This document shows, piece after piece, positions 27,825 through 59,850 of a DNA stretch of 64,000 nt. The DNA comes from Shigella phage ESh36: the sequence record ON528746; one strand, written 5' to 3'. The translations under genes were made by a program, and so were the position numbers. Position 1 is the first letter of the stretch. The number at the start of each line of letters is the position of its first letter. Under the pieces are notes generated by a model. It was not told the origin of the DNA and did not search any database. It saw only the letters and a program-made list of their open reading frames with translations.

Positions 27825-27844
27825 AACTTTGTGCAATCTTTGGA

Positions 27845-27872
27845 AAATAAAAAAGGACTCCCGAAGGAGTCC
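27845..27872 (-). terminator. rho-independent terminator after the 9th 30.x ORF
   Basis: GGACTCC-TTCG-GGAGTCC on minus strand followed by TTTTTTATTTT. Confidence 0.75.
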
Positions 27873-27877
27873 TCAAC

Positions 27878-28054
27878 TTATGCTTTCTGCTTACCAAAAC
27901 GAGAAGCATCATCTCGAAGAACCGCACGTGCTCGGCGCATGATCTTCTCAACAGTTTGATTGATACGAGAGTTCGACCCACGCTTGTAGCCAGCGCGTTT
28001 AGAATCACCAACTTTCTTTTCAACTGCTTTCTTTGCTTTAGCTTGTTTTGCCAT
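27878..28054 (-). CDS. small basic protein (30.x cluster, 9th ORF)
   Basis: 58 aa from ATG at 28054 (MAKQAKAKKAVEKK...); the track extends it to 72 aa; terminator hairpin directly downstream. Confidence 0.45.
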   Translation of the reverse strand: MAKQAKAKKAVEKKVGDSKRAGYKRGSNSRINQTVEKIMRRARAVLRDDASRFGKQKA

Positions 28055-28450
28055 TATAAATTCTCTTTTAAATGAAAATGCAGGACTTATTGGCATTGCC
28101 TGCGCAAGCCCTCAAGGGGAACATAGGTTTTGAATATTTACCGACAGGATAACCATAAACCCGTCAACATACCTTATAGCTCTTATCTGTTGCACACCGT
28201 TAGCTTAAAGGTTCCGGGTTCGATTTCTCGAGGATAAGATATATACTGATGGATATATAGGCCTTGAGGCGTACTCCCGATTGGCCATCACCTCGGGGTA
28301 GCATGCACTTGCCGCTATAAGAATAACATTCAAGAGGTACACCGTAAAACTGCCGGGGTCTTAAAACTATAATGATTCGCAAATCATTAATCAGACAGTT
28401 CGACGGCTCCTCGATTTTAGCTCACACTAAGGCAGTGAATCTCCAATAAA

Positions 28451-28699
28451 TTACTTCAGTGTTACCACAAAGTGACGAACTGCTTTTCGTGCAGCAGAAG
28501 CCAGAGGCTTAGCATATTTAAGTTCATCTTTTTCCTGAAGCTCAGCGGCTAATGCAGTTTGAGCAGGATTCAGATGTTTGAAATAACGCAGGATTTCAAG
28601 AGCTTCGGCTTCAACATCAATAGATGCGCCATAGTTTTCGTGACCATTATTCCATGCGTTTCGTTGCAGTTCAAGAGCGTGTTGTAATTGTTTAATCAT
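28451..28699 (-). CDS. rIII: rIII lysis-inhibition accessory protein
   Basis: 82 aa; MIKQLQHALELQRNAWNNGHENYGASIDVEAEALEILRYFKHLNPAQTALAAELQEKDELKYAK; T4 rIII length and position. Confidence 0.85.
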   Translation of the reverse strand: MIKQLQHALELQRNAWNNGHENYGASIDVEAEALEILRYFKHLNPAQTALAAELQEKDELKYAKPLASAARKAVRHFVVTLK

Positions 28700-28846: not shown

Positions 28847-29182
28847 TCACTTATAAAGACACGGAATAGCTTTATAGTGACAGGTAACGAATTTTTGTTT
28901 AATTTCTTTTGGCTGCTTAAGTCCCAAGGCTACAAAAGGATGCGGAACGTTTCGAATTTGACCAACTGGAAGAGAAGTCAAATCACCAACTTCACAGAAA
29001 CCTTCAGGAACATCAGGACCAACAGAGTGAACTACACACAGTTCAGGAACTTCACCTTGAACACGTTTACCGATAATAAGTCCTGATTCTGTAACTTCTT
29101 CATCACCGGCTTGTGCAGGTTCAGAAACTAAAATAACATACTCACCGACAGCACGAATTGGTAGCTGTTGTACTTCAGACAT
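28847..29182 (-). CDS. 31: co-chaperonin gp31 (GroES analogue)
   Basis: 111 aa from the second Met; [62 protein letters not shown]. Confidence 0.9.
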
Positions 29183-29238
29183 CATTTTTCCTTTTTGTTA
29201 ACAGATGAATTAATAATAACAAATAATTCTTAAAGCAT

Positions 29239-29547: not shown

Positions 29548-29784
29548 TTATTTACCTATCACAGTTTTAATATGAGTTGTTCCACGTTCTTTAAGTGTGG
29601 AAAGCAGTTTTTGGCATTTTTCTAAATCAGATTTCCAACTATATGGATTATCAATACAAACCCAGTTTGACTTATAATACTGTTTCCATTTAGAGAAAAA
29701 ATATTTCTTATACTCTACAGCAAATGAAATGTTCTCATTAGAATAAGAACTAATTGCTGTGAGTTGTACCAAACGAAATTTCAT
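29548..29784 (-). CDS. hypothetical protein (T4 31.2 position)
   Basis: 78 aa ORF. Confidence 0.5.
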   Translation of the reverse strand: MKFRLVQLTAISSYSNENISFAVEYKKYFFSKWKQYYKSNWVCIDNPYSWKSDLEKCQKLLSTLKERGTTHIKTVIGK

Positions 29785-30365
29785 TATTCACCGCAGAATT
29801 CGTTGATATTTTCCCAGTTTAACTTATTCAAGTTTTTCTTAGGAACATTAAACACTTCAATACCTGCATTTCGCAGAATATCATCCCAGCCAGGTTTATT
29901 TTTATCGTATGTTTCGCAATAAACCAGCTTTTTAATACCAGATTGAGCTATCGCTTTTGCACAATCTGGGCAAGGAGAAAGTGTTACATACATAGTAGCA
30001 CCTTCAATTGAAGAACCGTTTCGTGCAGCAAACAAAATCGCATTTAGTTCAGCATGAATTTCATTTTTAGACGACCATTCAGAGTGAGCGCTGCGGTGTT
30101 CTTTCGCCAAAACAAAACGATCAGTTGAACCAAATGATACACATTCGGGCTTATGACCTTGAATGATAGTATGTTTAGGCTTATTCAGCAACCAACCTTG
30201 CTCAGCAGCATAATCGCAGCAATTCACACCACCTGCCGGAGAACCATTATATCCGGTAGAAATAATACGTCCATTCTTTTCAATTACTGCTCCTACCTTC
30301 CAGGAGCAACATTTTGATTCTTGTGATACTAAATATGCAATTTGAAGTACTGTACTCGCTTTCAT
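29784..30365 (-). CDS. cd: dCMP deaminase
   Basis: 193 aa; zinc-binding deaminase motifs HAELNAI and PCPDCAKAI. Confidence 0.9.
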   Translation of the reverse strand: MKASTVLQIAYLVSQESKCCSWKVGAVIEKNGRIISTGYNGSPAGGVNCCDYAAEQGWLLNKPKHTIIQGHKPECVSFGSTDRFVLAKEHRSAHSEWSSKNEIHAELNAILFAARNGSSIEGATMYVTLSPCPDCAKAIAQSGIKKLVYCETYDKNKPGWDDILRNAGIEVFNVPKKNLNKLNWENINEFCGE

Positions 30366-36440: not shown

Positions 36441-37027
36441 CGTTATGTTCGATTGAGCTCGCTAATTCTCAACCCGTTCTCTTATGAACTGCTACATATT
36501 ACTATGCAGACCAGACTATATCACAATCCCAGAGGGATTCTCCCCATTTCGAGTCGCTTGACCCTACGTCCGAAGACTAGTCGTTGAACCTTGCTTTGCA
36601 ATTGTCGCCGTGCCATCGTTTATATGTTGATGGTGATAAATCTTTCTTATCACAATATGGACAATTCAATTGAATTCTATTTGGATTTAATTTACATCTG
36701 TCATTATGTTTTAGATAAAATCCAGGACCTTTACCAATGTGACCGCAGAAATCACATGTGATTTCTTTTTGTGCAGTCTTAACCATTTCTAATGTTTTTG
36801 CTGATGTCTTTTCTTATGGTCTTCCATCAGAATCTTTAGGTATAGGTCCGTTAGCATCTATCCAAATTTTTCTATAGTTCAATTGTGCATCCTCTTAAAA
36901 GTATAATCATATTTATGTTATACTAATTAAAGGTGCAAGCAAAACCTTGGCTGCTAGTTTTCCTATAAAGGACTTTCCAGCAATTAAAGGAGTTTTCGAT
37001 AAACGTTACCGTTTAAAGGCGCATTTT
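36441..37027 (-). mobile_element. group I intron interrupting nrdB (approx. 587 nt)
   Basis: NrdB frame stops (TAA) straight after ...FYVSFA and resumes about 590 nt downstream; proposed 5' exon ends in U and intron ends in G, as group I rules require; contains a decayed HNH endonuclease ORF. Confidence 0.7.
36577..36882 (-). pseudogene. I-TevIII: decayed intron-encoded HNH homing endonuclease (I-TevIII-like)
   Basis: Reads (L/M)NYRKIWIDANGPIPKDSDGRP-TAA-EKTSAKTLEMVKTAQKEITCDFCGH...CPYCDKKD...; HNH-type N-terminus then in-frame stop, HNH catalytic core missing, zinc-finger-like tail retained. Confidence 0.6.
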
Positions 37028-57347: not shown

Positions 57348-58148
57348 ATGGCAGTAGTTGGTGTTCCCGGTTGGATTGGAAGTTCATCCGTAAATGAAAC
57401 GGGTCAGCGCTGGATGAGTCAAGCGGCTGGTCAATTAAGATTGGGTGTTCCTTGCTGGATGAGTCAATTTGCAGGTCGCTCACGAGAAATTATTCATACC
57501 GTAACAGCAAACCATAACTTTAATGGTCAATGGTTCCGCGACCGTTGCTTTGAAGCTGGCGGTGCACCCATTGTATTCAATATTGTTGGTGATATCGTTT
57601 CTTATTCTAAAGATGTGCCACTTTTCTTTATGTATGGGGATACGCCTAATGAATATGTTGTTCTTAATATTCATGGTGGTGTTCATATGTGGGGTCGTGG
57701 TGGTAATGGTGGATACACTCACTCAGGAGGCGACGGTAACGGTACACAAGGCGGTCATGTTATTCAAAATGATATCGGTGGACGGCTTCGTATTTGGAAC
57801 TACGGTGTTATAGCTGCTGGCGGTGGCGGTGGCGGTGGTATTGCATATCGTCCACACTCAGGGGCAAACTGGCAAGATATCGGCGGCGGCGGCGGTCGAC
57901 CTTTCGGTGGTGCTGGCGGCGGCCGTTATTCCGGTGGTGCTGCTTCGTATGAAGGTCCGGGTGGTGGTTATGACTATGGTAACGCACACTCCGGCGCAGG
58001 TGGTAATGCTGGTGCTGCTGGTCAGAATGCATGGTCTGACGGCGGTAAAGTTCTTAAAGTTGGTGTTGGTGGTGCGTCTGGTCATGCAGTGTTTGGATCT
58101 TCTCCAACTTGGGGTGCTGTTGGAACAATTTACGGACCAAGAGTATAA
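57348..58148 (+). CDS. 38: gp38 receptor-recognising adhesin (T2 type, glycine-rich motifs)
   Basis: 266 aa from ATG at 57348 ([50 protein letters not shown]); poly-Gly motifs (GGGGGGG, GGGGG) separating variable segments; unlike the T4 gp38 chaperone. Confidence 0.85.
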
Positions 58149-59548: not shown

Positions 59549-59631
59549 AGACCTTCCCCTTATGTTTCTGTTTGCGATTAGATTCTTTAAACGCTTTCTT
59601 CTTATCCTTATGGACAGAAGCTTTATTAAAA

Positions 59632-59850
59632 TTATGTTTTGCGACTAAATTGTTCATAGTGCTGAATTACCTCTCTTAAACATTTGCATGTGAATGAAAA
59701 CTTTTTAGCTACACCACATTCAAATATATGTTCTCTTAAATCGCGTGTGTCAGTATATCCCATCTCAACGATAAAATGTCTTATTAAATTTTTATCTTTA
59801 TCATTGAGAGAATTAAAATAATCGGATTTTGAATTAATTTCCCTGGCCAA
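59632..59850 (-). CDS. hypothetical protein
   Basis: 72 aa ORF. Confidence 0.45.
   Translation of the reverse strand: MAREINSKSDYFNSLNDKDKNLIRHFIVEMGYTDTRDLREHIFECGVAKKFSFTCKCLREVIQHYEQFSRKT

Follow-up and report, generated by a model that had tools for sequence, protein, structure and literature searches.

What occupies the 354 nt that separate rIII from 30.9 in Shigella phage ESh36 (positions 28097–28450)? We addressed this question in a 64,000-nt segment of this T4-type (Tequatrovirus) genome, hereafter the window, in which the spacer is the longest stretch lacking an ATG-initiated open reading frame (ORF) of at least 45 amino acids on either strand (the next-longest ORF-free stretches measure 285 and 239 nt). 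Within it lie a 60-amino acid frame with a TTG start and a 45-amino acid frame with a GVG start. A sequence-only reading had described the spacer as a GC-richer tract with no plausible ORF and proposed that it held a structured small RNA, a tRNA gene remnant or a horizontally acquired regulatory element. The underlying observation is confirmed: the strings quoted at the time are found in place (GGTTCCGGGTTCGATTTCTCG at 28210, the AT palindrome at 28238, the GC-rich quote at 28260, tcttatct at 28181 and aggataag at 28231), as is a hairpin directly after the rIII stop codon. The genes and signals of the locus are as follows.

29784–30365, minus strand: cd
28847–29185, minus strand: gene 31
28451–28699, minus strand: rIII
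28370–28389, minus strand: AU-rich hairpin UAAUGAUU-UGCG-AAUCAUUA followed by UAGUUUU, read from the sequence, conserved in T4 and outside the RNA described below
28097–28169, minus strand: 5′ leader of 30.9 with the hairpins GACGGG...CCUGUC and CCCCUUGAGGG, aligned with T4 and outside the RNA described below
27878–28054, minus strand: 30.9
27853–27874, minus strand: intrinsic terminator after 30.9, a 9-bp stem followed by a U run

Past 30.9, the minus strand continues with 30.8, 30.7 and further genes. The GC content of the spacer (0.441 versus a window mean of 0.361, standard deviation 0.041) is raised, as had been noted, but it is not unique because it falls within the top 4.2% of the 354-nt stretches in the window, among which the maximum (0.576) lies near 57.7 kb. 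A core of 143 nt reaches 0.476. Single-sequence folding energies are unremarkable on both strands (z scores of −0.76 and −0.60), and the case for a structured element therefore stands on comparative evidence rather than on thermodynamics. The hairpin after the rIII stop (TAATGATT-CGCA-AATCATTA in plus-strand letters) was not called by a terminator scan because it has too few G-C pairs. Two weak, sub-threshold Rfam matches (Atu_C8 and Phe_leader, at 27839–27922) correspond to the 30.9 terminator.

The comparison with T4 separates the spacer into conserved flanks and an insert. When searched with BLAST, the spacer matched 996 phage records but was fully covered in only 179 of them; in T4, the flanks alone match, in two pieces. 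Alignment of the window to T4 places about 155 extra nt, missing from T4, at about 28170–28325. The core of this insert is 95% identical by local BLAST (92% globally) in T4-like phages of Klebsiella and about 85% identical in Serratia phages, where it occupies the same position between rIII and 30.9 within a spacer that is otherwise unalignable. A search with the core only retrieved 406 phage records, in 395 of which it is nearly complete, from phages of Klebsiella (161), Escherichia (130), Enterobacter (27), Shigella (26), Yersinia (18) and other hosts. The carriers are thus T4-like phages of the Enterobacterales, about 400 in number. In most comparisons the core is better conserved than the flanking genes, although not in that with EcS1. 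For example, the window and Klebsiella phage Roth21 share 91.6% identity across the core and 74.8% across rIII DNA.

We gathered copies of the core from GenBank phages, IMG/VR contigs and metagenomes to examine its conservation at the level of base pairing. RNAalifold predicted 39 pairs from 25 distinct copies, with compensatory changes at 24. The small hairpin GGCA/UGCU in this prediction was replaced, as covariation backs a longer helix (P2) in which the G of the invariant GCAUG takes part; the curated structure, with the longer P2 and an added helix (Px), served to build a covariance model (R1). In an alignment of 28 distinct copies that was fitted to a covariance model, and hence favors the structure, 99.4% of the paired cells are canonical and 31 of the 39 pairs show double changes, a count that none of 500 shuffles reached; the same substitutions are present in the MAFFT-based RNAalifold result and in the raw alignments. 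Sliding the curated structure by 1–3 columns left 27–43% of the cells paired. Model R1 recovered all copies (104–172 bits) and found one divergent copy (L082, 103.6 bits), which adds one further covariation in P6. The parts of the structure are listed below; index 1 of the RNA is position 28318 and index 143 is position 28176 (coordinate = 28319 − index).

28176–28318, minus strand: whole structured RNA element, 143 nt (170 bits with model R1; absent from T4)
28314–28318, minus strand: 5′ strand of P1, AUAGC, pairing with GCUAU at 28176–28180 (5 of 5 pairs compensatory: AU, UA, GC, CG)
28311–28313, minus strand: 5′ strand of Px, GGC, pairing with GCC at 28260–28262 (invariant except in L082)
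28303–28310, minus strand: J1/2, AAGUGCAU, a nearly invariant internal-loop strand (invariant columns in the alignments)
28269–28302, minus strand: P2, a 10-bp helix with apical loop L2 (9 of 10 pairs compensatory; 99.3% of cells paired)
28285–28290, minus strand: kissing-loop strand UGAUGG in L2, pairing with CCAUCA in L3 at 28247–28252 (covariation)
28240–28259, minus strand: P3 hairpin, UAUAUA, loop UCCAUCAG, UAUAUA (4 of 6 pairs compensatory; 100% of cells paired)
28234–28239, minus strand: 5′ strand of P4, UCUUAU, pairing with AUAAGA at 28181–28186 (5 of 6 pairs compensatory; 100% of cells paired)
28220–28231, minus strand: P5 hairpin, UCGA, loop GAAA, UCGA (4 of 4 pairs covary)
28194–28219, minus strand: P6, ACCCG pairing with CGG(U)GU around a 15-nt loop, GAACCUUUAAGCUAA (3 of 5 pairs compensatory)
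28187–28193, minus strand: J6/4, GCAACAG, the nearly invariant strand of the P4/P5/P6 three-way junction (invariant columns)

P1 closes the 143-nt element. Together with Px-P2, P3 and P4, it forms a four-way junction without linker bases, and P4 opens in turn to a three-way junction with P5 and P6. The strands of P2 are GCUACCCCGA (28293–28302) and UCGGGAGUACGC (28269–28280), with bulges at A44 and C48, and its apical loop L2 is GGUGAUGGCCAA (28281–28292). J1/2, which has the family consensus GG[C/U]AAGNGCAU, faces the J2/3 strand CUCAAG (28263–28268). Px is the weakest helix, its sole covariation being the change from C-G to U-A in L082. The loop of P5 reads GAAA or GUAA in most copies at the rIII locus (class A) and UAAA or UAAU in some, and it is U-rich in copies at a second locus (class B, described below). 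The loop of P6 carries the invariant blocks GGAMCC and GCUAA. About 45 unpaired bases are invariant across genera, and they are located in the junctions, in the loop of P6 and in the internal loop that separates Px from P2. The inverted repeat, AT palindrome and GC-rich string of the sequence-only reading are P4, P3 and P2, respectively, all of which covary across phage genera. The proposal of a structured small RNA is strongly supported.

A tertiary contact links the second and third arms. Six Watson-Crick pairs between L2 and L3 are kept in all 12 distinct loop combinations, through five sequences of the duplex (CGAUGG/CCAUCG, UGAUGG/CCAUCA, CUAUGG/CCAUAG, CAAUGA/UCAUUG and UGCAUU/AAUGCA). 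Loops combined across lineages form on average 3.6 bp and shuffled loops 3.1 bp. Five of the six kissing pairs show double changes, even with five misregistered rows in that alignment. With the kissing loop included, 36 of 45 pairs are compensatory among the 28 distinct copies and 98% of the cells are canonical (29–40% in slid controls). Beyond the kissing loop, a search for additional tertiary pairs by column statistics returned none that was convincing; a change from G73-C87 to A-U in class B marks a possible extra pair.

The alignments also identify the strand that carries the structure. The pairing cells include 23 G-U combinations, at 11 different pairs, and no A-C combination, so the structure is kept on the minus strand, from which the flanking genes are also read. 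Furthermore, in each of the 28 distinct copies stop codons interrupt every one of the six frames of the core, and the insertions and deletions are not multiples of three. The non-ATG frames of the spacer are closed in the homologues, although several GenBank records annotate a 'hypothetical protein' at the element. The G-U/A-C asymmetry and the closed frames exclude a DNA cruciform and a small protein, respectively. We consider it near certain that the minus strand of 28176–28318 encodes a 143-nt RNA with this fold.

The RNA is carried by phages only. BLAST searches of 5,426 E. coli genomes gave no match, plasmids gave no copy (two short, sub-threshold matches are due to chance) and two pattern scans, which covered one genome for each of 185,579 species of bacteria and archaea, returned none and then four chance matches, none of which was confirmed by the covariance model. 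All of the metagenome matches are on T4-sized contigs. In a wider viral search, a pattern for the 5′ half of the RNA retrieved 83 stretches; among the 61 loci that were new, the model gave a score to only two T4-like contigs. The RNA follows rIII in about half of the 47 IMG/VR loci encoding an rIII relative, and the loci without it include T4-like, RB69-like and Aeromonas-type large phages. Each genome that we examined as a carrier has one copy. T4, RB69 and many Tequatroviruses lack the RNA, and in one Klebsiella phage record it is disrupted by an inversion with an endpoint in P4. The RNA is consequently dispensable, at least in the laboratory.

The RNA also has a second genomic location. Class A copies are always between rIII and 30.9, on the same strand as these genes. 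By contrast, in class B (GAP161, Olmo, K41P2 and related contigs, annotated as Pseudotevenvirus or Slopekvirus) the RNA lies in a convergent spacer after the uvsY.-2 operon, facing uvsW.1, with no conserved ORF downstream. Class B copies keep the fold and all of the invariant blocks, and their helices covary internally (e.g., U-A to C-G in P2). The presence of the RNA at another locus without a downstream gene indicates that it works independently of its neighbors. The arrangement of the class A spacer varies as well. Blocks related to the 28097–28169 leader are on the opposite side of the RNA in other genera. A block of spacer hairpins is downstream of the RNA in Erwinia phage IT22 and upstream in Klebsiella phages. 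In Merlin and IT22 types, P1 starts about 10 nt past the rIII stop codon. These patterns show that the RNA is a phage-only, self-contained movable cassette. The proposal of a horizontally acquired regulatory element is borne out in its first half, by the indel of about 155 nt relative to T4 and the mobility of the cassette, but not in its second, since the RNA is tied to no one regulated gene.

How the RNA is transcribed can be read in part from the signals around it. A sigma-70 scan found no promoter just upstream. The early consensus TTTACW-N17-TAYWAT, taken from the T4-type early promoter (PMC4122927), matches at 28320–28348 on the minus strand with two mismatches, a frequency expected by chance (130 observed versus 115 expected). 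Visual inspection shows −10-like hexamers directly next to P1 in several lineages, but the start that they would imply falls inside the RNA. No intrinsic terminator was found within about 300 nt downstream of the RNA; the first canonical one is that after 30.9 (27853–27874), which is followed by a one-mismatch early promoter for 30.8. Because the RNA starts about 10 nt past the rIII stop in some genera, has no promoter of its own above chance and meets its first terminator after 30.9, the simplest reading is that it is co-transcribed with rIII or, in class B, with uvsY.-2. A spacer composed merely of the rIII terminator and a promoter, as the sequence-only reading had allowed, does not account for a seven-helix fold and pseudoknot with covariation, and the promoter matches are at chance level.

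What might such an RNA do? Our best guess, which we rank first but advance tentatively, is that it binds a host or phage factor in trans. The RNA would act autonomously rather than through its neighboring genes. The invariant bases of its junctions and loops, positioned by the kissing loop, would form a specific binding pocket for a protein or small molecule of the host or the phage, and this binding could serve an accessory role in host takeover or counter-defense. Cassettes in the hyperplastic regions of T4-type genomes typically encode accessory functions (PMC2839356; PMC4122927). The closed multi-junction fold, the tertiary lock, the approximately 45 invariant bases and the independence from neighbors all point to an RNA that may work alone via a specific pocket. 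Against this reading, no partner has emerged, and the proteins encoded by 30.9, 30.8 and the ORF upstream of class B gave no informative family. The Px helix depends on a single covarying sequence, and T4, RB69 and many Tequatroviruses manage without the RNA. Furthermore, an architecture closed by P1, with invariant junctions and a kissing loop, would suit a ribozyme or a riboswitch aptamer just as well.

In a possible, if less probable, reading, the RNA represents an unrecognized catalytic or ligand-sensing class of T-even-type phages, such as a new self-cleaving ribozyme or a free-standing aptamer. In its ligand-sensing form, the aptamer would capture a host metabolite or an immune signaling nucleotide. 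In either form, the phages would shuffle an RNA-only accessory or counter-defense gene between the cassettes of their hyperplastic regions.

Next in rank to the trans-acting binder is a new self-cleaving or otherwise catalytic ribozyme that would process the polycistronic rIII-30.9 transcript or the 3′ end of the uvsY.-2 transcript, a reading that we regard as unlikely. Its active site would comprise the invariant bases of the internal loop, junctions and P6 loop, with the kissing loop locking the fold. Such a role is consistent with a length of 143 nt, with conserved bases in junctions and loops next to stems that vary and covary, and with a location that, irrespective of the neighbors, either separates co-directional genes or closes a transcription unit. 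Self-cleaving ribozymes such as hammerhead, twister, twister-sister, pistol and hatchet are common in phage DNA, and several of these classes rely on contacts between loops and on multi-way junctions. However, no known family matches the RNA even at E ≤ 10, no cleavage site can be inferred, and closure of both ends by P1 is commoner among aptamers and stable RNAs.

It is also improbable, in our estimate, that the RNA acts in cis as a riboswitch-like sensor, an antitermination RNA similar to HK022 put or Bacillus EAR, or a 3′-end stabilizer. In this role it would govern how much transcription proceeds into 30.9 and the 30.x genes, or how long the upstream mRNA persists. Class A copies are suitably placed, between rIII and 30.9 and upstream of hairpins and of the only canonical terminator, and in Merlin and IT22 types the proximity to the rIII stop makes the RNA part of the 3′ UTR. 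P1, which is short, AU-rich and covarying, resembles a switching helix. The class B copies weaken this reading, as they keep the invariant bases and the covariation with a different upstream gene and no conserved downstream gene. So does the permutation of modules in the spacer: the RNA moves relative to the hairpins between genera, leaving no apparent fixed expression platform. The hairpins after the RNA also lack U tracts, and a simple stabilizer would need no set of some 45 invariant bases.

A DNA-level element (a cruciform, a recombination or replication signal or a protein-binding site) could be envisaged from the several inverted repeats, from the cassette boundaries in a hyperplastic region and from the inversion endpoint in P4. 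This reading is essentially excluded: the G-U cells and the lack of A-C cells show that the pairs are kept on one strand only, and neither a covarying loop-loop pseudoknot nor bulged helices and long invariant single-stranded blocks are expected in a cruciform.

The weakest reading, a decayed tRNA gene or a tRNA-like structure, is refuted for homology and essentially excluded. It arose from a T-arm-like motif on the plus strand, which reads GGTTCGATT, and it can draw on the cloverleaf-like four-arm junction with a loop-loop contact and a 3′ strand that is continuous through P4 and P1. The motif is, in fact, the antisense of P5 and of the 5′ strand of P6; it is on the wrong strand and is not conserved. 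In homologues its TTCGA becomes TCCGA, TCTGA or TCAGA (UCGG, UCAG and UCUG on the RNA strand) with compensating partners, changes that reveal a covarying 4-bp stem with a 4-nt loop instead of a 5-bp stem with a 7-nt T-loop. ARAGORN found no tRNA or tmRNA gene in the 64-kb window, and the tRNA, tmRNA and tRNA-like models of Rfam gave no match. The arm lengths and the sub-junction at P4 differ from those of tRNA, the kissing arms are the second and third rather than the second and fourth, and the RNA has no CCA. Furthermore, the T4 RNAs rnaC and rnaD, one of which has a true T-arm, are unrelated to it.

Three other candidates were considered and rejected. A group I or other mobile intron is incompatible with a T4 insertion point that is non-coding, with the lack of a match to Intron_gpI and with a length of 143 nt, which is too small. 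The resemblance to RNase P RNA amounts to one shared 10-mer, GUGCAACAGA (P of about 0.025 by shuffling), which we judged to be due to chance, and several shared 7–8-mers in covarying or variable parts, with no complementarity between the two RNAs. The words CUUAUC...ACCCGG.AACC...GGUG...AGAUAAG resemble words of the SAM-I riboswitch; the pairing defined by covariation differs from it, and the Rfam SAM model gave no match.

The element represents a real, strongly supported and apparently undescribed family of structured RNAs in T4-type phages. Rfam 15 (4,227 models, including riboswitches, ribozymes, group I introns, 6S, tmRNA, Y RNA, put and EAR) contains no match to either strand of the class A element at E ≤ 10; for class B, the only match is nos_TCE, which scores 15 bits where gathering requires 60, and no match in the whole window reaches gathering level. 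A keyword search of the published literature found no description of the RNA. It may be among the 10,006 unnamed candidates of a large automated viral screen (PMC10690425). What is new is the family, for which we found no matching Rfam 15 model, no bacterial homologue and no description in the literature searched; structured phage RNAs are familiar as a kind.

T4-type phages are among the best-studied genetic systems, and yet the RNA appears to have been overlooked in hundreds of sequenced relatives, probably because T4 lacks it. Its architecture (seven covarying helices, a covarying kissing loop and approximately 45 invariant bases) is of riboswitch or ribozyme grade. The existence of natural carriers (JS98 and the Jiaodavirus phages) and non-carriers (T4 and RB69), all of them laboratory phages, makes its role directly testable, and the fold predicts exact compensatory mutants. 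Any of the outcomes under consideration, be it a role as decoy or sponge, as a new ribozyme or as a new cis-regulator, would be of interest to RNA and phage biology.

The aptamers of purine and lysine riboswitches, in which a covarying P1 closes a junction with invariant bases and loops L2 and L3 kiss, offer, together with multi-junction ribozymes, the closest structural terms of comparison, taken here at the level of textbook architecture. Like them, the RNA has a short covarying P1, a loop-loop duplex of about 6 bp and near-invariant junction and internal-loop bases; unlike them, it combines a four-way with a three-way junction and has neither a consistent downstream gene nor an apparent fixed expression platform. 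The compensatory pairs and invariant columns described above are those of a putative aptamer fold, but the RNA is not confined to the 5′ UTR of functionally related genes, as class A precedes 30.9 and class B faces uvsW.1. With the four-way-junction ribozymes (twister-sister and hairpin) and with hatchet and pistol, it shares a similar size, conserved loop and junction bases and tertiary loop contacts and, with the ribozymes of phage DNA, an intergenic position in the orientation of the flanking genes. It differs from the known ribozymes in having no covariance-model match and no recognizable cleavage-site motif.

The HK022 putL and putR and the EAR RNAs are likewise structured and act inside the transcript upstream of terminators. 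The put RNAs are two simple stem-loops. EAR is represented in Rfam and gave no match, and class B faces a convergent gene, an arrangement that makes no obvious sense for read-through. The tRNA cloverleaf is similar to the RNA in its four-arm junction and loop-loop tertiary contact. In both molecules the 3′ strand passes without a break through two helices, the T and acceptor stems in tRNA and P4 and P1 in the RNA, and we infer from this continuity that P4 stacks coaxially on P1. The T4 rnaC and rnaD genes (species 1 and 2 RNAs, 119–139 nt) are, like the RNA, small and T-even encoded, and they are annotated as stable RNAs. Unlike the RNA, they are located in the tRNA cluster, and rnaC has a genuine T-arm (GGGUUCGAAUCCCGG); model R1, run with filters off over the T4 region of the tRNA, rnaC and rnaD genes, scored at best 8.8 bits, away from the RNA genes.

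The genomic behavior of the RNA has its counterpart in the hyperplastic regions of T4-type phages, which contain short terminator-plus-promoter motifs known as PeSLs (Arbiol et al., 2010, PMC2839356; Comeau et al., 2014, PMC4122927). As with PeSL cassettes, the RNA resides in a hyperplastic region and is bounded by stem-loops and promoter-like fragments. It differs from PeSLs in being a 143-nt multi-junction structure whose upstream early-promoter match is at chance level only. Like the small-ORF cassettes of these regions (PMC2839356; PMC4122927), it is present, absent or relocated as a unit.

The new RNA, the 143-nt structured element of the rIII/30.9 spacer, also occurs as a second, divergent class (class B). 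These copies lie in a convergent spacer located 3' of uvsY.-2 and a 45-aa ORF (phrog_12503), with uvsW.1 opposing. Their carriers are Pseudotevenvirus/Slopekvirus-type phages, whose contigs are absent from the set of rIII loci. We also identified a rearranged copy in a Klebsiella phage (coordinates of L-numbered loci are locus-internal):

L038:1500-1650; L039:1500-1647; L007:1399-1545; L024:9225-9373: class B copies, 118-124 bits
L173:667-895 (MW239157.1 35666-35894): rearranged copy, Klebsiella phage vB_KpnM_17-11

In vB_KpnM_17-11, the 5' half of the RNA (helices P1 to P3) is intact and a segment of ~145 nt comprising the 3' half (P4 to P6) and the downstream spacer is inverted, with one endpoint inside P4. 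The inversion may have arisen naturally and disrupted the RNA, or it may be an artefact of assembly.

The invariant sequence GUGCAACAGA (window 28187-28196, minus strand) is also a 10-mer of the E. coli RNase P RNA (rnpB), a match with a probability of about 0.025 by shuffling. The further 7-8-mers common to both RNAs fall in variable parts, and no complementarity was found between the new RNA and E. coli rnpB. We judged this resemblance to be coincidental.

On the 3' side of the spacer, the 30.9 frame (window 27878-28096, minus strand) spans 72 open codons when read from an upstream ATG (28096). The left boundary of the ORF-free tract in the sequence-only reading (28097) holds only for this longer version. 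We favour the 58-codon version with a predicted start at 28054, based on the T4 annotation and a good ribosome-binding site. Rfam matches to Atu_C8 (31 bits, E 4e-4, below the gathering score of 50) and Phe_leader at window 27839-27922 (minus strand) give no indication of a small RNA; their sole source is the strong intrinsic terminator that follows 30.9.

Elsewhere in the window, the highest GC content is at about 57690-58050, with 0.576 across 354 nt and 0.65 across the 143 nt at 57819, much higher than in the rIII/30.9 spacer stretch; this region returned no tRNA or Rfam family calls. Only two other stretches (36787-37025 and 59549-59833) exceed 200 nt without containing, on one strand or the other, an ORF of 45 aa or more that begins with ATG; neither matched the covariance model of the new RNA.

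Two hairpins neighbour the RNA:

window 28130-28165 (minus strand); L002:1640-1750 (minus strand); L040:1650-1720: second conserved spacer hairpin
window 28102-28122 (minus strand); also 3' of the RNA in L002, L003, L006, L007 and L038: recurrent hairpin GU(A/U)CCC-loop-GGGGCUUG

The second spacer hairpin is common to T4 and reads GACGGG-UUUAUGGUUAU-CCUGUC in the window and GUGG...GGUUAUC-CCAC in Klebsiella phages, base changes that look compensatory by eye. In Klebsiella and Serratia phages the block carrying this hairpin precedes the RNA, but in the window and Erwinia phage IT22 the block lies downstream. The recurrent hairpin follows the RNA by 5-75 nt in both classes. Furthermore, in Aeromonas phage PS49 a hairpin of this type lies directly upstream and terminates in a perfect TTGACA. 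The recurrent hairpin resembles the boundary of a PeSL, the promoter/stem-loop cassette of T4-type hyperplastic regions, with its stem-loop and -35 box.
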